DNA from: Minisyncoccota bacterium
Lineage (GTDB): Bacteria; Patescibacteriota; Minisyncoccia; Phycocordibacterales; Phycocordibacteraceae
Direction: 5' to 3'
Length of the DNA stretch: 64,000 nucleotides
NCBI GenBank assembly: GCA_035627655.1
Contig: DASPLI010000001.1
Coordinates: 601,605 to 665,604 of the forward strand
Positions 3,125 through 42,500 of the stretch are shown here, piece by piece; positions within the stretch are counted from its first letter, which is position 1, and every line of letters begins with the position of its first letter. The position numbers and the translations under genes are program-made. The notes under the pieces are model-generated. The model was not told where the DNA came from, made no database searches, and saw nothing but the letters and a program-made list of their open reading frames with translations.

Positions 3125-5047
3125 ATGACTGTTCGGGAAGTGCGCGACCGGTATCTAGCCTTCTTTAAAAGCCGCACCCATACGGTTATTCCGTCTGCGC
3201 CAATCGTTCCCGGAAACGATCCGACGACCCTCTTTACCTCTTCCGGCATGCAGCCGTTGGTTCCATACCTGCTCGGGAAGGACCATCCGGAAGGCGTGCG
3301 GCTCGTCAATTCGCAGCTAAGCTTCCGCGCGGGAGACATTGAAGAAGTGGGCGACAACCGCCACACCACCTTCTTTGAGATGCTTGGAAACTGGTCGCTC
3401 GGAGATTACTTCAAACAAGAGCAGCTGCCGTGGGTATTTGAATTCCTCACTTCCAAAGAAGAAGGACTGGGGCTGAATCCGGAGAATCTCTATGTCACCG
3501 TATTTGCCGGAGACGCAGAGAGCGGCATGGCTCCCGATACCGAATCAATCGGTATCTGGCAGGAACTTTTTAAAGGGAAGGGTATCGACGCTCCCTTTGT
3601 GGAGCTTGGCAGCGAGGCAGGCGGATACGAGAAGGGCATGCAGGGCGGCCGTATCTTCTCCTACGATGCAAAGAAGAATTGGTGGAGTCGCGCCGGTGTT
3701 CCAACAAAGATGCCGGCTGGCGAGCCGGGCGGACCGGACTCTGAAGTCTTCTACGACTTCGGCCTTCCACATGATCCTAAGTGGGGCGAGCACTGCCACC
3801 CGAATTGTGACTGCGGCCGATTCATCGAGATTGGAAACTCGGTGTTCATGCAGTTTATTAAGAATCAGGATGGTTCGTTCTCTGAGCTTCCCAAGAAGAA
3901 CGTGGACTTCGGTGGTGGCCTAGAGCGCCTGACAGCCGCCACCCTTGGCGACCCAGATGTCTTTAATATTGATGTGTTTGCTCCGGCACGCGCACTTCTT
4001 GAAGAGCGAAGCGGAAAAGGGTATGGCGAGAGTGAGAGCGTGACCCGCTCCTATCGCATCATTCTTGACCATATTCGTGCAGCAACCTTCATGCTTGCCG
4101 AAGGCGTTCTTCCATCCAATACCGAAGCGGGATATGTGCTTCGCCGCCTTATCCGCCGCGCAATTCGAGAAGCGGATCGGCTCGGCGTGCACGAGACCCT
4201 ACTTGCAGACGTGGTTGCTGGTTTTGCCGCTGCCTACGGAGATCACTACCCGCACATCGCACAGAATGTCGAGAAGATCCGCGAAGGACTCAAGGCGGAA
4301 GAAGACAAATTCAGGAAGACGCTAGAACAAGGATTGAAGGAGCTCAATAAACTTCCTTTGGGACCTGGTTACGTTGTAGGAGGAGATACAACCACGATGT
4401 TTGTAACGACATATGGATTTCCCGCAGAACTTATCTCAGAAATTGCTCAAGAAAGAGGAGCGAGTGTCGATCTTGAAACGCACGAGCGAAATATGGAAGA
4501 GCATAGAGCTAAGTCTCGTGAAGGAGCAGCGCAGAAGTTTGCCGGTGGTCTTGCGGATCACTCGGAGCAGACCGTGCGCTATCACACCACGCACCACATT
4601 CTGCTCAAAGCACTCCAGACGGTGCTTGGCGGGGAGGTAAAGCAGCGCGGATCGAACATCACGGCAGAGCGCCTTCGCATCGACTTCTCGTACGGATCAA
4701 AAATGACGGACGAGCAGAAGGCGCAGGTAGAAAAGATCGTAAATGAAGTGATCTATCAGGATCTTCCGGTTACCCGCACCGTCATGCCAAAGACTGAGGC
4801 AGAACAGCTTGGCGCACAGATGGAGTTCGGCGTGAAGTATCCGGACATGGTGTCCGTGTATTCAGTCGGACCAGCACATGCAACCGAAGATGCTCCAGAT
4901 ATTCCAAACGCATTCTCGCTTGAATTTTGTGGCGGACCGCATGTTTCAAATACCCGCGACATACACGAAGGAGGGAAGAAGTTTCGTATTCAAAAGGAGG
5001 AGGCAGTCGCCGCTGGCGTTCGTCGCATCAAAGGCGTGCTCGATTAA
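3125..5047 (+). CDS. alaS: alanyl-tRNA synthetase, short form (catalytic + editing domains, no C-Ala domain)
   Basis: N-terminus FTSSGMQP..., the HCHPNCDCGRFIEIGNSVFMQF core, the editing-domain HTTHHILLKAL motif and a CGGPHV zinc motif. 640 aa. Confidence 0.85.
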   Translation: MTVREVRDRYLAFFKSRTHTVIPSAPIVPGNDPTTLFTSSGMQPLVPYLLGKDHPEGVRLVNSQLSFRAGDIEEVGDNRHTTFFEMLGNWSLGDYFKQEQLPWVFEFLTSKEEGLGLNPENLYVTVFAGDAESGMAPDTESIGIWQELFKGKGIDAPFVELGSEAGGYEKGMQGGRIFSYDAKKNWWSRAGVPTKMPAGEPGGPDSEVFYDFGLPHDPKWGEHCHPNCDCGRFIEIGNSVFMQFIKNQDGSFSELPKKNVDFGGGLERLTAATLGDPDVFNIDVFAPARALLEERSGKGYGESESVTRSYRIILDHIRAATFMLAEGVLPSNTEAGYVLRRLIRRAIREADRLGVHETLLADVVAGFAAAYGDHYPHIAQNVEKIREGLKAEEDKFRKTLEQGLKELNKLPLGPGYVVGGDTTTMFVTTYGFPAELISEIAQERGASVDLETHERNMEEHRAKSREGAAQKFAGGLADHSEQTVRYHTTHHILLKALQTVLGGEVKQRGSNITAERLRIDFSYGSKMTDEQKAQVEKIVNEVIYQDLPVTRTVMPKTEAEQLGAQMEFGVKYPDMVSVYSVGPAHATEDAPDIPNAFSLEFCGGPHVSNTRDIHEGGKKFRIQKEEAVAAGVRRIKGVLD

Positions 5048-5538: not shown

Positions 5539-5814
5539 TTATGCAGCCGGAGATGCGGCCTGCGCCTTAAGGGGACACCAGGATGGTGAATCGCCCTCTT
5601 TGCGCAGGTTATATGGCCGGATCGCGGGCATAACGATGCGATACTCCGACCGCTGCGAAAGGTACTCGGAGTTCACGTCTTGCTCGGGATTCTTCACGTC
5701 CGTGCAAACGATCGCCTTATCGTCGTCATTGAACGAGTCGTGCGGGTCGTCGTCCCGAATCACGCGATGCTTGGGACAATCCATGCAGTTCTCGTAGGTT
5801 TTGACGTTGGTCAC
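5539..5814 (-). CDS. small Cys-containing hypothetical protein
   Basis: An AAGGAGG Shine-Dalgarno (SD) site sits 8 nt upstream of a GTG start (minus-strand 5814). The product contains CMDCPKH...IVCTD. Start choice is uncertain. Confidence 0.3.
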   Translation of the reverse strand: MTNVKTYENCMDCPKHRVIRDDDPHDSFNDDDKAIVCTDVKNPEQDVNSEYLSQRSEYRIVMPAIRPYNLRKEGDSPSWCPLKAQAASPAA

Positions 5815-11876: not shown

Positions 11877-12275
11877 ATGCCTGATCTCGCTTACACCACC
11901 GCCGTTGGACGCCGCAAGACCGCGACTGCTCGCGTAAAGCTCACCCCTGCAGGGAAGATGAGCGTAACCGTCAATGGCAAGCCGGGCGACGAGTACTTCA
12001 AGACGCGCGAGCGTCAGCAGGTCACTCGCGACGCTTTCCACGTTGAAGGCGTTGAAGGCACCTACGAAGTCGTTGCCCGCGTTTCTGGTGGCGGTCCGTC
12101 TGCACAGGCTGAGGCAGTCCGCATGGCGATTGCCCGCGCCCTTGAGAAGCGCGATGCAAACCTTCGCAAGGTCCTCAAGACTGCCGGCTACCTCAAGCGC
12201 GACCCTCGTTCTGTTGAGCGCAAGAAGCCGGGTCTGTTGAAGGCTCGCAAGCGACCATCCTGGTCCAAGCGTTAG
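11877..12275 (+). CDS. rpsI: 30S ribosomal protein S9
   Basis: 132 aa with the S9 C-terminal KKPGLLKARKRPSWSKR. Confidence 0.9.
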   Translation: MPDLAYTTAVGRRKTATARVKLTPAGKMSVTVNGKPGDEYFKTRERQQVTRDAFHVEGVEGTYEVVARVSGGGPSAQAEAVRMAIARALEKRDANLRKVLKTAGYLKRDPRSVERKKPGLLKARKRPSWSKR

Positions 12276-12280
12276 TAACG

Positions 12281-12310
12281 AAACCCGCTGTATTGGCGGG
12301 TTTTGTTTGA
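12281..12310 (+). terminator. rho-independent terminator after rpsI
   Basis: AAACCCGCTGTATTGGCGGGTTTTGTTTG: a 7-bp GC stem followed by a T-run. Confidence 0.6.
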
Positions 12311-12320
12311 TAATAAAAAT

Positions 12321-13034
12321 ATGGAAGCAACGACTACAGTTTCAACAGCAGTGATATTTCAATTTGCGCAAGAAATGGCCAGTTTAAACCTTGGCTATCT
12401 TGGAGTTTGCGTGACTATTATTCTATTTGCTGGCGGTTTTTTCTATCTCTTCAATCTAAATCCGATGCAGAAGAAAATAGAAAAATACGAAGAAAAATTG
12501 GATGATCTTGAGACTGAAGTTAATGAAAAGGTTGAGGCCTTTGAACAGCAGTTCCAAAAGATCTCGGAAACTCAATCTGAGGAGTTTAAAGCACTGTTAG
12601 AAGAAACACAGGTTGAGATTCTCAACTCTGAAGAAGATATTCGGAAAAAATATAATGAACTCGAGAGGAAAGTTGAAAATCTTATTACCTCTGGACAAGC
12701 AGATTTGGATGAGATTAAGGGGAAAATTAAAGATTCTGAACTTAATCAAATGTGGTCAGATCATTATATGTGGGGCGCTAGAAAAATAACTGCAAACGTA
12801 ATATTTGTATTGATTCTGCTCATAGACAAGATTCTGGAATACAAAAGACAGGAGTGGAAGATTCGCATGGCCCTCGACAATCTTCTTTCTGCATTGGATG
12901 ACGCTGAAAAGGAAAAACTAAAAGATCAAGAAATGTACAACCATGCCATAATCACATTAGACCAGATTAAGGACCCAGAGGTGGAAGATCTCACAAAGAA
13001 GGTTAGAGACAGGTTCGAAGTAATAAAGGAATGA
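12321..13034 (+). CDS. coiled-coil membrane protein encoded in a low-GC island (hypothetical)
   Basis: ~237 aa from the ATG at 12321 (the track ORF begins at a TTG at 12303). Two TM segments plus long Glu/Lys-rich heptad-like stretches. Local GC is roughly 35-40% against ~60% in the flanks. Confidence 0.55.
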   Translation: MEATTTVSTAVIFQFAQEMASLNLGYLGVCVTIILFAGGFFYLFNLNPMQKKIEKYEEKLDDLETEVNEKVEAFEQQFQKISETQSEEFKALLEETQVEILNSEEDIRKKYNELERKVENLITSGQADLDEIKGKIKDSELNQMWSDHYMWGARKITANVIFVLILLIDKILEYKRQEWKIRMALDNLLSALDDAEKEKLKDQEMYNHAIITLDQIKDPEVEDLTKKVRDRFEVIKE

Positions 13035-13039
13035 TAATT

Positions 13040-13068
13040 TTGACTCCCTCCGTCACTTCAGGCATATT
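13040..13068 (+). promoter_or_regulatory. putative sigma70-like promoter of grpE (near-leaderless)
   Basis: TTGACT, a 17-nt spacer, then CATATT ending ~6 nt before the grpE ATG. No SD. Confidence 0.3.
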
Positions 13069-13074
13069 TTATGC

Positions 13075-13596
13075 ATGGATAACGACGATGTCGTCATTGA
13101 ATCTGACGGTTCCGAAGAGCTCGGGACTGATGTAAAGGATAAGTCCGCCAAGCTGAAGGCGGATATCGAGCAGCTTCGCAAAGAAAAGCAGGAGTATCTT
13201 GATGGCTGGCAACGTGCCAAGGCTGATTACGTCAACGCACTGAAGCGCTTTGAGGAAGAGAAGAAGGGGGCGCTTGAGCTTGGAAAGATCCTTTCCGTAC
13301 AGTCCTTCCTTCCGGCTATGGATTCCTTAGATCGCGCAGAAGCAGCGGGGGAGATTCCGGAAGCCTTCCAGGGTATCGCTAAGCAGCTCCATACTGCTGC
13401 AAAGGAACTTGGTCTTGAGAAGTTCGGTGCAGCAGGCGATACGTTCGATCCCGCACTCCACGAAGCGCTCGGCCAGGATCCGACCGATGACAAGAACAAG
13501 GACGACACTATCACCGTCGTTCTAGAGCCAGGCTGGAAGTCCAAGGAATTGGTCGTCCGTCCCGCGAAGGTGCGCGTCGCGCATTTTGAAGGCTAA
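13075..13596 (+). CDS. grpE: nucleotide exchange factor GrpE
   Basis: 173 aa. Coiled-coil N-terminus and the C-terminal GrpE core (LRKEKQEYLDGWQRAKADYVNALKR...). Confidence 0.85.
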   Translation: MDNDDVVIESDGSEELGTDVKDKSAKLKADIEQLRKEKQEYLDGWQRAKADYVNALKRFEEEKKGALELGKILSVQSFLPAMDSLDRAEAAGEIPEAFQGIAKQLHTAAKELGLEKFGAAGDTFDPALHEALGQDPTDDKNKDDTITVVLEPGWKSKELVVRPAKVRVAHFEG

Positions 13597-13654
13597 GGCT
13601 ATCCACTTGAAAGCGAGAATGGGAGGTATATAGTGCCTTCCGGAGGAGTAGGAA

Positions 13655-13948
13655 ATGAGCAAAGTATTGCTTTTGCTTCTTGCCATCTGGCTAACCATTT
13701 CGCTCATGCAGGTCGCACGAACGCGAGTTCGGGACTGGCGGCATTCCCGCTATGTCATAGCGAGCGTTCCGCGCGGACGTCGCATGAACCCCGAACAGAT
13801 CTGCGATCTCGTGCTGCGCCGCTACCCGCGCGCGCAAACGTTCCTCATCCGCCGAGCCATCAAACGGCTCTGCGAGAAAGGACGATTCACGAGCGAGGAG
13901 TTCAGCCAGTTTGGACTGCCGCGCGGACCCTATATCCGCATCGGCTAA
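13655..13948 (+). CDS. small hypothetical protein, N-terminal TM plus basic winged-helix-like C-terminus
   Basis: 97 aa. LVLRRYPRAQTFLIRRAIKRLCEKGRFTSEE resembles a wHTH recognition region. TAA at 13946-13948 overlaps the hairpin element. Confidence 0.35.
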   Translation: MSKVLLLLLAIWLTISLMQVARTRVRDWRHSRYVIASVPRGRRMNPEQICDLVLRRYPRAQTFLIRRAIKRLCEKGRFTSEEFSQFGLPRGPYIRIG

Positions 13949-13980
13949 AGACAACGGCCCGCATCTGCGCGGGCCGTTCG
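13947..13980. repeat. stop-codon-abutting hairpin element / intrinsic terminator (family A, copy 1)
   Basis: AAGACAACGGCCCGCATCTGCGCGGGCCGTTCG. It is near-identical to the 14877-14909 copy. Confidence 0.6.
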
Positions 13981-14044
13981 TTGTACACAACAGTTTTAGA
14001 TTCACCTATGCCGCTGCCAGTACAATCGGAAATGGAGGAGTGCG

Positions 14045-14362
14045 GTGATGATTCCTAAAATCACGCTGCCATTCCTGGCACGGTTGCTCTGCGCAACCAT
14101 GCTTGGCGTGGGGTTGGGTCTATTGGCGGTGGAATTCGATGTGCGAACGCATCGCAAAGACATGCACCAACGGCTACGGACAGGCGTGGTAAGTGATACG
14201 CCTGAAATGCATTACTTTCATAAAGAAGTGCCAGGAATCGGTGCAACAATGTACCTATTTCCGGCCGCAAAGGAGCTACCTCCGGTCTGCCGGGACGGAC
14301 TCTACGCAGATATGGGAACGGGACGTGATGGGCGACATCTGTACGCCTGCACCAGTCCCTAG
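14045..14362 (+). CDS. hypothetical small membrane protein (weak call)
   Basis: 105-aa ORF with one TM-like segment between the two hairpin copies. No clear RBS. Confidence 0.2.
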   Translation: MMIPKITLPFLARLLCATMLGVGLGLLAVEFDVRTHRKDMHQRLRTGVVSDTPEMHYFHKEVPGIGATMYLFPAAKELPPVCRDGLYADMGTGRDGRHLYACTSP

Positions 14363-14464
14363 CATGCCCATGGCCGCCGGATACCTATTCGGCGGCTTTG
14401 CGTTGGTTGCCAGATTACAGAAAGCAGGTAGTATGCCCACCGGAACACAGAGAAAGGGAAACCC

Positions 14465-14878
14465 ATGGCTGATTCATGGTCCTGTTTGTACGTTGAGAAC
14501 GGACCCGGAATGATCGATGACAACGTTCGCTGCGCGATCAAGATGGCCGCCTGCCGGCTGTTCTTGAAAAAGCAGGAGTATCTGTTGTTTGAGACCGATA
14601 CGTGCGGCGGCGTGATCCAGACTACGTGGGAGCACAAACGACTCTTTGCCGTCGCGGGCTTTCTGTTTCGGACGGAAGTTACGTTTGAGGACTACGTCGA
14701 CTACAAGGTCAACTTCCTGATTAGCGAAGGAGACCTGCAACGCGGCGCCAAGCTCCTTGAGCGTAACGAAGAAGAGGGCATGGACGCCTATGTCGGCGTC
14801 AATGTCCCGTTCCGTCTCCCACTTGCTGATGTCTATCAGTTTAAGGATCTGTCCTTTCGTGGCCAGCACCTCAACTAA
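14465..14878 (+). CDS. hypothetical protein
   Basis: 137 aa with a weak AGGGAAA SD. TAA at 14876-14878 overlaps hairpin copy 2. Confidence 0.4.
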   Translation: MADSWSCLYVENGPGMIDDNVRCAIKMAACRLFLKKQEYLLFETDTCGGVIQTTWEHKRLFAVAGFLFRTEVTFEDYVDYKVNFLISEGDLQRGAKLLERNEEEGMDAYVGVNVPFRLPLADVYQFKDLSFRGQHLN

Positions 14879-14909
14879 GACGACGGCCCGCGCTTGCGCG
14901 GGCCGTTTT
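14877..14909. repeat. stop-codon-abutting hairpin element / intrinsic terminator (family A, copy 2)
   Basis: AAGACGACGGCCCGCGCTTGCGCGGGCCGTTTT. Confidence 0.6.
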
Positions 14910-14918
14910 CCGTCACAC

Positions 14919-14946
14919 TTGAAAGTCATCTTTCCGTGCGTACAAT
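14919..14946 (+). promoter_or_regulatory. putative sigma70-like promoter of dnaK
   Basis: TTGAAA, a 16-nt spacer, then TACAAT, ~60 nt upstream of the dnaK ATG. No CIRCE inverted repeat was found. Confidence 0.35.
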
Positions 14947-15005
14947 AGGGGGTAACGGGCTTTGGGCCATTTTTTACTAGACAGTAACTACTCAGGCTTT
15001 TCTCT

Positions 15006-16889
15006 ATGGCAAAGATACTCGGTATCGATCTTGGAACGACCAACTCCGCCATGGCCATCATGGAGGGCGGTGAGCCGCGCGTCCTTGAAAACGCAGAAGG
15101 CGGACGCACCACACCATCGGTCGTAGCTATCGCAAAGAACGGCGAGCGACTCGTCGGCACACTCGCAAAGCGTCAGGCGGTCACAAACCCTAAGAACACC
15201 ATCTACGGCATCAAGCGCTTCATGGGTCACCGCTTCAAGGATGATGCGGTGCAGCGCGATAAAGGCATTGTTCCGTACGAAGTGAAGGAAGGGCCAGATG
15301 GCGGCGTTACCGTACACCTGGGAGACAAGGACTATCGTCCGGAAGAAATCTCCGCGATGATCCTCGGCAAGCTCAAGGCTGATGCCGAGAAGAAGCTTGG
15401 TGAGACGATCACCGAAGCCATCATCACGGTGCCGGCATACTTCGATGACGCGCAGCGTGCAGCAACCAAGGCTGCCGGACAGATTGCCGGTCTTGAGGTG
15501 AAGCGCATCATCAACGAGCCGACCGCAGCCGCGCTTGCCTACGGTTTCAACAAGAAGAAGGATGAGAAGATCGTCGTATTCGACTTCGGCGGCGGCACCT
15601 TCGACGTCTCTGTGCTTGAAGTAGGGGACGACGTCATTGAAGTGAAGTCGACTGACGGCGACTCGCATATGGGCGGCCGCGATATCGACCAGAAGATCGT
15701 CCGCTGGCTTGCGGATGAGTTTAAGAAACAGAGTGGTCTTGATGTGACCAAAGATCCGCTTGCGCTCCAGCGCCTGGATGAGGCAGCAGAGAAAGCGAAG
15801 CACGAGCTCTCGTCAGCAACGGAGACAGAAGCAAACATTCCGTTCATCACCGTTGGCGCAGACGGCACGCCGCAGCACCTCTTGATCAAGATTTCCCGCG
15901 CAACGCTTGAGTCGCTTGCGGAGGAGTATGTTACGCGCTCGATTGATATCACCAAGCGCGCGCTTGAGGCAGCCGGCATGAAGGCAAGCGATATCAACGA
16001 AGTCATTCTCGTTGGCGGCCAGACGCGCATGCCGATGATTCAGGACCAGGTAAAGACGCTCTTTGGTAAAGAACCGCACCGCGACGTGAACCCAGACGAA
16101 GTAGTCGCTATTGGTGCGGCGATCCAGGCCGGTATTCTCCAGGGCGACGTCAAAGACATTCTTCTTGTGGACGTTATTCCGCTCTCGCTCTCCATTGAGA
16201 CGATGGGCGGCGTTGCAACGAAGCTCATCGAGCGCAACACGGCCGTGCCAACGTCGCGCAGCCAGACATTCTCGACAGCATCGGATAACCAAACTTCGGT
16301 AGAGATCCATGTCACACAGGGCGAACGTGCTATGGCGACAGACAACAAGTCGCTTGGACGCTTCAACCTTGATGGCATTCCGCCAGCGCCGCGCGGCATG
16401 CCGCAGATTGAGGTGACCTTCGACGTCGACTCAAACGGCATCCTGACCGTGAAAGCGAAAGAGAAGACGACCGGCAAAGAACAGTCCATCCGCATTGAGG
16501 GATCGACGGGCCTTTCTGAAGCAGATATCGAGCGCATGAAGAAGGATGCGGAAGCGCATGCTGCAGAAGATGCAAAGCGCAAGGAGCTCGTCGACACCAA
16601 GAATATTGCCGAGCAGCTCATCTACACTGCGGAGAAGGCGCTCAAGGATAACGGCGACAAGATCGGAGATGACATCAAGAAGGATGTCGAAGATAAGATC
16701 GGCGACCTGCGAAAAGCCCGGGAAGGGGAGGACGTCGGGACTATTAAGGCTGCAGCCGAAGCACTTTCGGCGTCCACGCAGAAGATCGGCGAGACCATGG
16801 CTCAGGCGCAAAACCAGGGAGAGCAACCGCCTCCGCCGCCAGATTCTGGAGCGGCCGATGCGGAGTTTACCGAGAAGCCAAAAGAGTAA
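15006..16889 (+). CDS. dnaK: molecular chaperone DnaK (Hsp70)
   Basis: 627 aa with canonical Hsp70 motifs: [24 protein letters not shown] and a C-terminal acidic tail. Confidence 0.95.
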
Positions 16890-39378: not shown

Positions 39379-40334
39379 CCAATCTGAAAACACTCGTTTC
39401 TGAATACGAAAAACAGCGCCGCGCGCGCGAACGCTATCAAATGGCAGTCGCGCTCATTGCTGGCGTATGTGTACTTGGCGGACTCACGCTTGCTGCGTTT
39501 CGCATGCAGGAGCCCAAAGAGACGCCGCCCGTTGCCAAAGCGCCTACGCCAAGCGCCTTTGATACGGTCGAGCTCTCCGCAAAAGCAGCGATCGTCCTTG
39601 ATCTGACGACCGGGGAAGTGCTCTATGCCAAGAACGCCGAGGCACAGCTACCGCTTGCATCACTCACCAAGCTCCTGACGCTCTATGCAGCGTCGCAGAC
39701 ACTTTCTGAAAATACCGTTATTACAATGTCTGCGGATGCGCTTGCAGCAGATGGTGATACCGGCTTTACACAAGGAGAGCGCTTCACCTTCCGCGAGCTT
39801 GCCCGCATGGCTATCACTGCAAGCTCAAACGACGCGGCAGCAGCAATTGCAGAAGCAGCCGCTGACGCTGGTCATGCATCAAACGGCACGGCACTCCTTG
39901 CAAACGTTGCCTCCGCGCTTGGACTGACACAAACCTACGCGCTCAACGGCACCGGACTTGATGAGAACGGCACGATCTCCGGCGCCTATGGCTCTGCCCG
40001 CGATATCGCCGTCCTTGCCGGAGAACTACTCAAGCGCGCACCAGGAATTGCACGCGCCTCCATTGATCCGACTATTACCGCAAACTCGCTTGCTGGCCGC
40101 TCCTATACGCTTACGAATACAAATCCGGGCGTCGACCATATTCCCGGCCTTCTTCTCTCAAAGACGGGGTACACCGATCTGGCCGGCGGCAATCTCGCGA
40201 TCGTATTTGACGCGGGCATCGAGCACCCGGTCGCGATTGTCGTACTTGGCTCAACACGTGACGAGCGGTTTGTTGATGTCAATGAGTTGGTCGCCGCAAC
40301 AACCGCCGAGTTTGCCGGTCTGACACTGCCATGA
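39375..40334 (+). CDS. D-alanyl-D-alanine carboxypeptidase (S11, PBP5-like)
   Basis: SLTK (SxxK), SSND (SxN) and KTGYT (KTG) motifs with an N-terminal TM anchor. Confidence 0.75.
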   Translation: MTNLKTLVSEYEKQRRARERYQMAVALIAGVCVLGGLTLAAFRMQEPKETPPVAKAPTPSAFDTVELSAKAAIVLDLTTGEVLYAKNAEAQLPLASLTKLLTLYAASQTLSENTVITMSADALAADGDTGFTQGERFTFRELARMAITASSNDAAAAIAEAAADAGHASNGTALLANVASALGLTQTYALNGTGLDENGTISGAYGSARDIAVLAGELLKRAPGIARASIDPTITANSLAGRSYTLTNTNPGVDHIPGLLLSKTGYTDLAGGNLAIVFDAGIEHPVAIVVLGSTRDERFVDVNELVAATTAEFAGLTLP

Positions 40335-41389
40335 GTCTTGTTGATGCAGCGCGTGTACTGATTCCATTTGTCGCGACCTTCGCCGTCGGTATTGCGCTTG
40401 CACCACTTCTTACTAACTATCTTTACAAGCACCAGGTCTGGAAGAAGAAGGGAGGGAAGCAGGCGATAGACGGCACGGTTGCCGTTGAGTTCAACAAGCT
40501 TCACGAAGCTCGCGAATCGCACACCCCGCGCATGGGCGGCATTCTTATTTGGGGATCAGTTGTTGTCGTTGCTCTGTTGTTTGCTGTACTCGCGCTCATC
40601 AATAGCACTTTTTCTGATCTCGACTTCGTCAACCGCGGACAAACCTGGCTTCCGCTCTTTGCGCTTCTCTTTGGCGCCGGACTTGGCTTTATCAATGACG
40701 TGCTTGATGTCACGACGCCTGACGCCCGCGGACTTCCGCTTCGCATCCGCCTTTCCGCAATTGCCCTTGCTGCGGCAGCCGTCGCTTGGTGGTTCTATGA
40801 CAAGCTTGAAGTTTCTTCAGTCGGTATTCCATTCTTCGGTCCGCTTGAGCTTGGCATACTCTTTATTCCATTTTTCATCTTTGTCACCCTTGCCATCTAC
40901 GCTAGCGGTGTTATTGATGGCATTGACGGGCTTGCCGGCGGCGTCTTCGCAATCATTTTCATGACCTATGCCGGAATTGCGTTTGCCCAGGAACAGGTTG
41001 CGCTCTCAGCGTTTGCTGCAGCGGTCTCTGGCGGCATCTTTGCCTTCCTCTGGTTCAACGTCCCGCCAGCGCGCTTCTGGATGACGGAGACTGGCTCCAT
41101 GGCGCTCACGCTTGCGCTTACCGTGACGGCGTTCTCTGCAGACGTGCTTGGCGACGGGGTAGGAGTGGGCGTGCTCCCGATCATTGCGCTCCCGCTTACC
41201 GTGACGGTGGCGACCGTTGTTCTCCAGATTCTTTGGAAGAAGATCTTCAAGAAGAAGCTGTTTCGTATCGCGCCGGTCCATCACCACTTTGAAGCGATCG
41301 GCTGGCCGTCCTACAAGGTCACCATGCGCTACTGGATCATCACTATCATCGCGGGTGTGTTTGGCCTTGCGATCGCCCTGCTAAAATAA
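40331..41389 (+). CDS. mraY: phospho-N-acetylmuramoyl-pentapeptide transferase
   Basis: GVIDGIDGLAGG and ten TM helices. Overlaps the dacA-like stop. Confidence 0.9.
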   Translation: MSLVDAARVLIPFVATFAVGIALAPLLTNYLYKHQVWKKKGGKQAIDGTVAVEFNKLHEARESHTPRMGGILIWGSVVVVALLFAVLALINSTFSDLDFVNRGQTWLPLFALLFGAGLGFINDVLDVTTPDARGLPLRIRLSAIALAAAAVAWWFYDKLEVSSVGIPFFGPLELGILFIPFFIFVTLAIYASGVIDGIDGLAGGVFAIIFMTYAGIAFAQEQVALSAFAAAVSGGIFAFLWFNVPPARFWMTETGSMALTLALTVTAFSADVLGDGVGVGVLPIIALPLTVTVATVVLQILWKKIFKKKLFRIAPVHHHFEAIGWPSYKVTMRYWIITIIAGVFGLAIALLK

Positions 41390-41393
41390 GGGC

Positions 41394-42500
41394 ATGCGGC
41401 TTGGATTCTCCGGCGATCGTCTCTTTTTCCTGATCGTGCTCGTGCTCGTCGTTGGCGGAATCGCCATGTTTGCCTCTGCATCCCTTGGTCTTCTTGCGCG
41501 TGCAGATGGTGCGCCCTGGCGGCTTGCGCTCACGCAACTTCTGCTTGGCCTTATCCCGGGCACGCTCGGGCTGCTTGCGCTTCGCTTTGCACCGCCGGCA
41601 TGGATCCAGAAGATGGTTGTGCCGGTCTATCTGGGAGCGATCATCCTGACGCTCCTCGTGTTCGTGCCGGGTATCGGTATGACTATCAACGGCGCAACCC
41701 GTTGGATTGATATCGGCTTTACGACCGTGCAGCCAGGCGAATTCTTGAAGATCGGTACGATTCTCATGCTTGCCTGGTGGCTCTCACGCGTGAAAGGAAA
41801 GCTGACTGACCTGACGAAAGGTCTTATCCCGTTTGGCGTCATTGTCGGATTGCCGTGTCTGATTCTGCTACTGCAGCCGAACACTTCGACCGTCATTATT
41901 ATTGGCCTGACATCAGTCGCGTTGTATTTCCTTGCCGGTGCACCACTCCGAGATTTGTTCTTGCTTGCGCTCATTGCGGTCGTGCTTGCTGCCGGCCTCG
42001 TGATGGCCCGTCCATATCTCTTAGATCGCGTAAAAACGTTTATGGATCCGTCTCGCGACCCACTTTCTTCCGGCTACCAGATCCAGCAGTCGTTGATCGC
42101 GATTGGTTCAGGCGGATTGGTGGGACGCGGATTTGGTCAGAGCGTGCAGAAGTTCAACTATCTGCCTGAAGCGCACGGCGACTCCGTGTTTGCCGTCTAC
42201 GGAGAGGAGTTTGGGTTTGTTGGAACTATGCTCTTGCTCGGACTGTTTGTCGCGTTTGCGACGCGTGGATTTGCGATAGCTGCAGGCGCCGCAACACTCT
42301 TTGGGTCCTTGGCCGCCACCGGTCTCACCCTTCTCATATCCTTAGCCGCATTTCTAAATATTGGCGCGATGCTTGCCATCCTGCCGCTTACCGGCCTTCC
42401 GCTGCCGTTTGTGTCCCACGGCGGTACGGCACTCTTTACGGCGCTGCTGTGCGTCGGCATCATTCTAAACGTGGCTGCACACCGCAAACGACGAACATGA
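41394..42500 (+). CDS. ftsW: SEDS-family peptidoglycan glycosyltransferase (FtsW/RodA)
   Basis: 368 aa with a polytopic SEDS signature (GFGQSVQKFNYLPEAHGDSVFAV). Confidence 0.85.
   Translation: MRLGFSGDRLFFLIVLVLVVGGIAMFASASLGLLARADGAPWRLALTQLLLGLIPGTLGLLALRFAPPAWIQKMVVPVYLGAIILTLLVFVPGIGMTINGATRWIDIGFTTVQPGEFLKIGTILMLAWWLSRVKGKLTDLTKGLIPFGVIVGLPCLILLLQPNTSTVIIIGLTSVALYFLAGAPLRDLFLLALIAVVLAAGLVMARPYLLDRVKTFMDPSRDPLSSGYQIQQSLIAIGSGGLVGRGFGQSVQKFNYLPEAHGDSVFAVYGEEFGFVGTMLLLGLFVAFATRGFAIAAGAATLFGSLAATGLTLLISLAAFLNIGAMLAILPLTGLPLPFVSHGGTALFTALLCVGIILNVAAHRKRRT

Follow-up and report, generated by a model that had tools for sequence, protein, structure and literature searches.

The question raised by this locus is how a short stretch of low guanine-plus-cytosine (GC) content came to lie between the conserved genes rpsI and grpE, and what the gene inside it does. 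The locus belongs to a Minisyncoccota bacterium (assembly GCA_035627655.1, contig DASPLI010000001.1), from which we analysed a stretch of 64,000 nucleotides (positions 601,605 to 665,604, forward strand), called the window below and numbered from its first letter. The part between the rpsI stop and the grpE start (12281-13074) holds one open reading frame (ORF) of 237 codons plus stop (12321..13034, + strand), which we call gene X and which was defined by the ORF itself, the family profile search and the cluster members. It corresponds to NCBI HYD93524.1 (VEB18_03700), a 'hypothetical protein' from a metagenome-assembled genome (MAG) of 'Candidatus Paceibacterota'. We consider it probable that gene X is a single accessory gene, intact and kept by selection, that fills a hot-spot slot, was gained by horizontal exchange and encodes a scaffold or sensor protein.

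The stretch has a GC of 0.372 compared to 0.551 for the whole window, and the ORF itself has 0.371, next to rpsI with 0.614 and grpE with 0.542. Windows of 714 bp from the rest of the 64 kb show a mean GC of 0.553 (standard deviation 0.025, minimum 0.47), which makes gene X the global minimum of the window with z = -7.4. The low-GC stretch described in an initial annotation is therefore real, even if the genome stands at about 55% GC and not at the ~60% given there. The GC at third codon positions (GC3) of the ORF is 0.376, while the 64 window ORFs compared have a mean of 0.619 (standard deviation 0.063) and gene X is the only true outlier among them. Recoding gene X with the host codon usage gave an expected GC of 0.467 and an expected GC3 of 0.626; therefore about half of the dip results from the amino acid composition of the product, in which Glu, Lys, Leu and Ile are abundant, and about half from the choice among synonymous codons. 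In base composition and codon usage the gene is atypical for the host, as in genomic islets, and the GC borders of the insert coincide exactly with the gene, without foreign flanks.

By its GrpE relatives the host is a member of the Patescibacteria, of the Paceibacteria/Kaiserbacteria type. We compared the locus with 70 related species (Paceibacteria) that have rpsI and grpE on the retrieved stretch. By tblastn synteny the order rplM-rpsI-spacer-grpE-dnaK is preserved in these 70 species, with a spacer between rpsI and grpE of 60-3153 bp that holds from zero to several unrelated genes, among them genes for secreted Cys-rich proteins, purF, cupins, a LexA-like protein, membrane proteins and many unannotated products. 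A six-frame search with the family hidden Markov model (HMM) found no X-family gene in any of the 70 spacers. The closest relative found, L106 (GrpE 85% identical), has two unrelated genes in the slot and lacks gene X, and L011 (RpsI 92%) has a spacer of 297 bp without it. In a blastn comparison with L106 the window shows 80% nucleotide identity up to position 12274 and again from 13035, with no homology between, which together with the GC profile delimits a lineage-specific variable segment with a GC of ~0.37 (12275..13034, + strand). Deletion of approximately 12315-13037 would leave a spacer of 76 nt, similar to the minimal spacers of 60-80 nt found in L033, L068, L073 and L074. As gene X is missing from the relatives, as homology breaks off exactly at its borders and as the cargo of the slot is variable, the low-GC stretch is an accessory gene inserted at a hot spot of gene turnover.

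The slots of the two relatives show features of their own. One of the L106 slot genes (2243-2791), directly upstream of the grpE promoter, codes for a TehB-like methyltransferase and has 37% GC in a 55% GC background (0.372 vs 0.554); a distant TehB-like gene (24% identical) lies between purL and purQ in L001 (3703-4314, GC 0.369 vs ~0.43). The L011 slot contains a 45-codon Cys-rich (zinc-ribbon-like) ORF (3785-3955), followed by its own GC-rich terminator hairpin.

The left border of the slot is rpsI (ribosomal protein S9; 11877..12275, + strand; ORF list and tblastn synteny in the 70 relatives), the last gene of the rpoA-rplQ-rplM-rpsI block. It is followed by a terminator hairpin, AACGAAACCCGC-7 nt-GCGGGTTTTGTT (12277..12307, + strand), detected as an inverted repeat and by RNA folding (-18.9 kcal/mol, z -5.6), and analogous hairpins are present at the equivalent position in L106 and L011. 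The right border is a grpE promoter-like site found in the promoter scan, TTGACT-17-CATATT (13040..13068, + strand), 6 nt upstream of the ATG of grpE (13075..13596, + strand; identified by its ORF, by synteny and by the Pfam GrpE match of the identical protein P0155). The site is conserved, as a TTTTGAC-N17-CATATT element precedes the grpE ATG by 6-8 nt also in L106, L011, L010 and L026. The stop codon of gene X ends at 13034, only 5 nt before the -35 box of this site and 40 nt before the grpE ATG; the distance of ~40 nt from the insert to the grpE promoter, as noted before, thus holds for the start codon and not for the promoter. The TTGAC-N17-CATATT arrangement (window 13040-13077, L106 2800-2838, L011 3957-3998), placed 6-8 nt before the ATG and without a Shine-Dalgarno sequence, suggests that the grpE mRNA could be leaderless or near-leaderless in this clade.

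A similar geometry is found in front of gene X, where a candidate -10 box GATAAT (12309..12314, + strand), read from the sequence, lies 6 nt upstream of the ATG, identical to the arrangement CATATT, 6 nt, ATG at grpE. A leaderless gene X transcript is therewith possible, and no Shine-Dalgarno sequence was found upstream of the X-family genes in any homologue examined. The start at ATG 12321, which had been assigned from the letters of the window, is backed by the N-termini of the homologues and by NCBI, whose gene call gives 237 aa. The JGI and Logan/ENA calls (P0001 and P0153; 12411-13034) begin with a GTG at Val31 and give 207 aa, which halves the conserved transmembrane helix. Between the stop codon of gene X and the grpE promoter-like site there is no hairpin, and the fold of 13020-13080 is no better than that of shuffled sequences (z 0.18).

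The product of gene X belongs to an unannotated protein family. A word-indexed search returned four distant relatives with 33-35% identity and a full profile search 187 proteins at E<=1e-3, 123 of them at E<=1e-10 and most with 220-300 aa. From these a family alignment of 73 sequences (A2) was used, none of which reaches any Pfam model. The alignments A2 and A3 are too divergent to serve pattern scans, and a scan of the GTDB genomes with family patterns, which reach only close relatives, gave no relatives. Four parts can be distinguished in A2, all encoded on the + strand: a short Thr/Ser-rich acidic N-terminal tail, predicted to be extracytoplasmic (aa 1-22, 12321..12386), a near-invariant hydrophobic helix with a juxtamembrane motif (aa 23-50, 12387..12470; alignments A1 and A2 and hydropathy), a helical region of low conservation and variable length (aa 51-137, 12471..12731) and a conserved C-terminal block (aa 138-237, 12732..13031). 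The second part follows the motif N-x2-YL-x3-V-x-IIL-x2-GG-x-FY-x-FN-x2-P-x-Q, the last one the motif L-x3-W-x2-HY-x-W-x4-V-x2-N-x-L...EK-x3-Y with further helices behind it, and all family-conserved residues (N23, Y26, L27, Y42, P48, W151 and N159) are kept in the gene X product.

The conserved transmembrane segment spans aa 23-45 and is the sole conserved one in the family. The second of the two segments assumed originally (aa 156-174) is hydrophobic in the window protein only and is represented in the homologues by an amphipathic helix of the C-terminal bundle. Between homologues the synonymous sites of the transmembrane codons are saturated (identical codons 0.2-0.5), so that the conservation of this helix acts on the protein and not on the DNA; for the same reason we rejected the idea that it reflects a recombination site at the DNA level.

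In total 13 contexts of homologues including the window were recovered. These are rpsI/X/grpE (window and P0012), purM/X/purC, ndk/X, X/tig-clpP-rny, nrdB/X (twice), tRNA-Gln/X (twice), MBL-fold/X/PAS, an island with Vsr and Bro-N genes and a few short contigs. No recurrent partner gene stands beside X across the 13 contexts and neither a shared border motif nor a shared promoter was found among the homologue loci. An integron gene cassette was rejected, since an attC-type fold 3' of gene X is missing as well as such a border motif. P0012, which is 29% identical to the window protein, fills the rpsI-grpE slot of another genome, whose GrpE is outside the 120 best matches to the window GrpE (at least ~62% identity) and which is therefore a distant host. 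The recurrence of two slots among 13 contexts is unlikely by chance and would point to a preference for hot spots or to slot-faithful exchange via conserved flanks.

P0022 is the only homologue for which a mobility signature was found. In four independent assemblies it lies on a segment of 781 bp with 31% GC, between two direct copies of 19-20 nt from the 3' end of tRNA-Gln, which is a classical integrase-type insertion signature, yet without an integrase inside. In L102 (4835-5741; also in L103, L104 and L105) the 3'-end repeats of tRNA-Gln(ttg) are at 4920-4939 and 5722-5741, and a partial copy of the 5' part of tRNA-Gln at 4835-4856. On the same contig no gene is called over ~960 bp between those for Dus and RuvB (1746-2708), and in L094 another homologue begins 40 nt past tRNA-Gln(ctg). 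A different situation is seen at nrdB, where L008 and L098 share 91% nucleotide and 99.7% protein identity in nrdB. This similarity is lost right at the stop codon of nrdB, and the two X proteins have no more than 37% identity. Either nrdAB has been homogenised or transferred here, or the region 3' of nrdB is hypervariable. On both contigs (L008 1140-2911, L098 4944-6708) a DUF5680-like gene follows downstream of X, 42% identical between them.

What the family looks like in the membrane can be predicted from its charges. The 15 residues after the transmembrane helix contain on average 3.34 Lys and Arg compared to 0.55 before it, a pattern seen in 71 of the 73 members, and 20 of the 27 N-extended members carry a signal-peptide-like segment before the N-terminal tail, which forces the same orientation. 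This positive-inside pattern and the signal-peptide segments statistically support a topology with the N-terminus outside and the C-terminus inside (N-out/C-in), with stalk and head predicted to be cytoplasmic. An AlphaFold (AF2) model built from the 73-sequence alignment (predicted local distance difference test, pLDDT, 93; predicted template modelling score, pTM, 0.62) shows residues 9-153 as a single unbroken helix, followed by helices at 157-174, 179-194, 203-214 and 219-236. The variable region (aa 51-137) would accordingly form a cytoplasmic stalk of continuous helix (pLDDT 95-98), which also agrees with its periodicity, and the C-terminal block a Trp-rich helical head of the alpha-alpha solenoid or TPR-like type. 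The hydrophobic periodicity of the stalk is 3.65 residues and thus hendecad-like, without the heptad signal that had been read into its Glu/Lys-rich stretches.

Across the family the spacing from P48 to W151 varies from 88 to 128 residues and is quantised at a period of 3.65-3.7, with a resultant of 0.74 for all members (P<2e-4) and of 0.61 for the 19 distinct lengths; 0 of 5000 random sets matched the observed quantisation. These numbers indicate that indels in the stalk come as whole helical turns, by which the angular register from the transmembrane helix to the head is preserved, and they argue for a rigid continuous helix in which this register matters. For the head the best Foldseek hits were Get4, Hop TPR2A and Sec72 (~100 residues at ~3 A, E 0.27-0.4, not significant). 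The head has no sequence relative in the PDB, and a head-only profile gave no match in a set of 5.8 billion proteins.

Taken together we propose the following model. The lineage gained gene X by horizontal exchange, in the slot that runs from the terminator of rpsI to the promoter of grpE, as it is absent from the sampled relatives, as its borders are exact and as a homologue lies on an attachment site (att)-flanked islet. Uptake of DNA from other Patescibacteria is the most likely route. Its expression may start from the AT-rich -10-like box, which would give a leaderless mRNA, or may depend on transcripts that read through the rpsI terminator, and as the gene has no terminator of its own the transcript should run on into grpE. 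In the protein the near-invariant transmembrane helix would serve as the anchor and probably docks, either with another copy of itself or with a conserved partner in the membrane, the rigid hendecad-type helix of ~90 residues (~13 nm) would set the distance and orientation of the head, and the Trp-rich TPR-like head, predicted with high confidence, would bind a partner in the cytoplasm. The product is thus most likely a membrane-tethered scaffold or sensor that, according to the model, presents a protein-binding module at fixed distance and orientation. From the patchy occurrence of the family, its fast divergence, its AT-richness and its return to a few slots we infer that this partner is more likely variable or foreign, of the conflict or phage-exclusion type, than part of the core housekeeping machinery.

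Several observations weigh against this interpretation. On the functional side, searches in Pfam, NCBIfam, PHROGs, PADLOC, PDB and BFVD gave no significant match, and the AF2 structure is a monomer prediction. The consensus promoter scan found no full sigma-70-like site for gene X. No tRNA was found within 20 kb of the insert, neither an integrase nor a relevant Rfam element near the locus, and as a target-site duplication or att repeat only the 7-mer TGATAAT, which is not above chance; the mobility signatures integrase, tRNA target and direct repeats are thus missing at the window locus. Likewise no donor or near-identical copy was found elsewhere, the nearest homologues being 34-37% identical. 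The presence of P0012 in the same slot also fits an old residence with many losses. Finally, in 9 of 10 genomes X has a higher AT content than its host (GC3 deficit 0.06-0.29), and its GC3 tracks that of the host (Spearman 0.83-0.88, slope 0.41). With such a family-wide bias, low GC is a trait of the family and not the date of a transfer, and it is therefore no proof of recency. Of the recent horizontal acquisition postulated initially, the accessory single-gene insert thus stands, while its recent arrival is not borne out.

Phage exclusion or abortive infection is the alternative that survives best and can be regarded as a tentative possibility. In this case the head would sense a phage component and the transmembrane helix would oligomerise and block DNA entry or depolarise the membrane. 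The patchy distribution, the deep allelic divergence at fixed loci and the horizontal exchange would fit, as would the polar and small residues (N, Y, T, GG) in the invariant transmembrane helix, one homologue in an island with Vsr, Bro-N and SHOCT genes and sub-threshold similarities to reverse transcriptase (RT)-associated SLATT proteins (E 0.004) and to an Rz-like spanin (E 3e-5). The best PADLOC hits (RTasSLATT, E 0.0037, and JetC, 0.0038) lie on coiled-coil or transmembrane regions and are not significant. A SLATT effector with two transmembrane helices was rejected, as the family has one conserved transmembrane helix and SLATT_5 matches with an E of 2.6, and an Rz-like i-spanin (PHROG 739), as the topology is opposite (i-spanins are N-in/C-out) and adjacent lysis genes are missing. 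Weak matches are spread over many families of the type 'transmembrane plus helix': below the Pfam thresholds the 73 members hit T2SSM (12), YajC (8), ATP-synt_B (6), DivIC and others, a scatter that looks compositional, and profile searches of the PDB with the whole family or the head alone returned generic helical proteins or nothing. No relatives were found in the IMG/VR viral contigs, the INPHARED phages and the PLSDB plasmids (tblastn for the latter two) or in BFVD. Most contexts are housekeeping operons and not defence islands, the neighbours here being rpsI and grpE and only L097 lying near Vsr and Bro-N genes. An Abi-like or phage-exclusion identity, as it had been suggested from the sequence, is therefore not backed by any significant match in PADLOC or PHROGs or by any relative on a phage, plasmid or viral contig.

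That gene X is an old resident with an intrinsic AT bias, which was lost or replaced in most relatives, appears rather unlikely. Its low GC would then be a gene-specific steady state, caused for example by weak selection or little GC-biased gene conversion on an accessory gene that rarely recombines, or by selection for rare codons limiting a membrane protein. This would explain why P0012 occupies the same slot in another genome, why nrdB/X recurs in L008 and L098 with the synteny of the downstream DUF5680-like gene, why X is poorer in GC than 9 of 10 hosts with a GC3 that follows theirs and why the GC borders are exact to the gene at a locus without mobility genes. Relatives with the gene at the same place and with the same low GC had been named beforehand as the sign of an ancient resident. 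As described above, it is missing in all 70 related species and the slots of the two closest relatives hold other genes, so that only P0012, with its distant host, agrees in part with that sign. Furthermore one homologue lies on the att-flanked islet, and the co-located homologues are not sisters in a neighbour-joining (NJ) tree (bootstraps 2% for the window protein and P0012, 15% for P0005 and P0016). This tree is star-like and poorly resolved with low bootstraps, so that vertical and horizontal history are not separable by it. The GC3 pattern itself agrees poorly both with one low-GC donor whose transfers are very recent and with an old resident whose composition has been ameliorated completely. 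It suggests repeated exchange among related genomes, to which a systematic shift towards AT is added, as is typical of accessory genes under weak selection.

A bolder version of the gain by exchange would see the X genes as unrecognised AT-rich single-gene cassettes that form a new stand-alone conflict or immunity system of the Patescibacteria. These cassettes would move into a few favoured slots beside strongly conserved genes (rpsI/grpE, nrdB and tRNA-Gln) and encode a novel type of membrane-tethered cytoplasmic sensor, in which the invariant transmembrane helix would act as effector and the fast-evolving stalk and head would recognise phage or host-cell factors. As a whole this is improbable at present.

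A divergent ATP synthase b-type stalk, or another N-anchored housekeeping stalk like EzrA, ZipA or YajC, is very unlikely. It would share the N-out/C-in architecture and the hendecad-type helix, the profile of the family aligns with residues 1-121 of E. coli subunit b at an E of 6.5e-4, and there is a juxtamembrane resemblance at the motif level. However, only 2 of the 73 members match PF00430 at E<=1e-3 and 6 at E<=0.1, all below the Pfam gathering threshold, hhalign against E. coli AtpF gave a probability of 14%, and T2SSM and YajC match as often, which indicates a generic signal. None of the 13 contexts is in an atp operon, and the patchiness of a family that is not universal and is absent from close relatives is incompatible with an essential subunit, for which reasons this identity was rejected.

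An adhesion protein had also been proposed at the beginning. A surface adhesin or extracellular fibril with an N-terminal transmembrane anchor, which would be in keeping with the long helical stalk with a terminal head and with the fast evolution typical of surface proteins, is hardly plausible and was dismissed, as the positive-inside rule in 71 of 73 members and the orientation forced in the signal-peptide members place the bulk of the protein in the cytoplasm. Still less credible is an assembly chimera in which a low-GC fragment of another organism was mis-joined into the MAG, which could account for the sharp composition break in a metagenome-assembled contig, since the insert ends exactly at a terminator on one side and at a promoter on the other, both conserved in relatives, the same 743-kb contig is found in three sources (which may share reads) and the homologues show a gene-exact dip in a dozen independent contigs.

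With horizontal gain of an accessory gene as the preferred explanation, the locus can be compared to known systems. Islets flanked by core genes and att-flanked remnants without integrase (CIME-like, from cis-mobilizable element) share the atypical composition, the absence from close relatives and the fixed slot with lineage-specific cargo, and the homologue in L102 even has the att-like repeats of a tRNA 3' end. The window insert differs from them as a single gene of ~0.73 kb without tRNA, integrase or significant repeat and with borders exact to terminator and promoter. The O-antigen wzx/wzy clusters between galF and gnd are hypervariable low-GC loci with conserved flanks, and X resembles them in its divergent alleles, low GC and conserved flanks (91% nucleotide identity in nrdB vs 37% amino acid identity in X). 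In contrast, X is a single protein predicted to face the cytoplasm without a surface-polysaccharide pathway, and recombination via the flanks is only conjectured. Prophage morons and superinfection-exclusion proteins such as lactococcal Sie2009 or HK97 gp15 are, like X, small AT-rich stand-alone genes for N-anchored membrane proteins and are retained after decay of the element, whereas X has no prophage context, no sequence or structure similarity to the phage proteins searched and a bulk that is predicted to be cytoplasmic. Subunit b of the F-type ATP synthase (PF00430), EzrA, ZipA and YajC share with X the topology, the single N-terminal transmembrane helix, a juxtamembrane aromatic-x-x-K/R-P motif and a long cytoplasmic helix, whose hendecad-type periodicity is like that of subunit b. 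X is set apart from them by the lack of significant homology, its Trp-rich TPR-like head, its patchy distribution and the missing operon association.

Beyond the rpsI-grpE slot, the window contains a spacer of 1.4 kb between grpE and dnaK (13597-15005), with dnaK (15006-16889; ORF list) following downstream. It contains small ORFs without Pfam matches (13655-13948, 14045-14362, 14477-15061 (minus strand)). In relatives this spacer ranges from ~20 bp to >2 kb, by which it looks like a second variable slot. Two other regions of the window, 40100-42400 and 22100-25500, show a strongly negative AT skew (-0.25 to -0.35, + strand), the latter with a somewhat lower GC (~0.50), and probably encode Phe/Leu-rich membrane proteins.

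In summary, the locus is a base-pair-resolved case of gene gain in a streamlined genome of the candidate phyla radiation (CPR). Current views are not overturned by it, as horizontal gene transfer (HGT) among Patescibacteria and islands that often lie beside translation genes are already documented (PMC12455944). Four features stand out, namely an AT bias that runs through the family, slots that recur, the mini-islet between att-like repeats and a stalk whose length is quantised in helical turns. The spacer between rpsI and grpE, and probably also the one between grpE and dnaK, is a turnover hot spot across the Paceibacteria, and knowing this helps to find accessory genes in these organisms. 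Furthermore, the analysis defines an unannotated protein family with an invariant transmembrane helix, a turn-quantised stalk and a predicted TPR-like head, and it shows that low GC can belong to a gene family rather than date a transfer.

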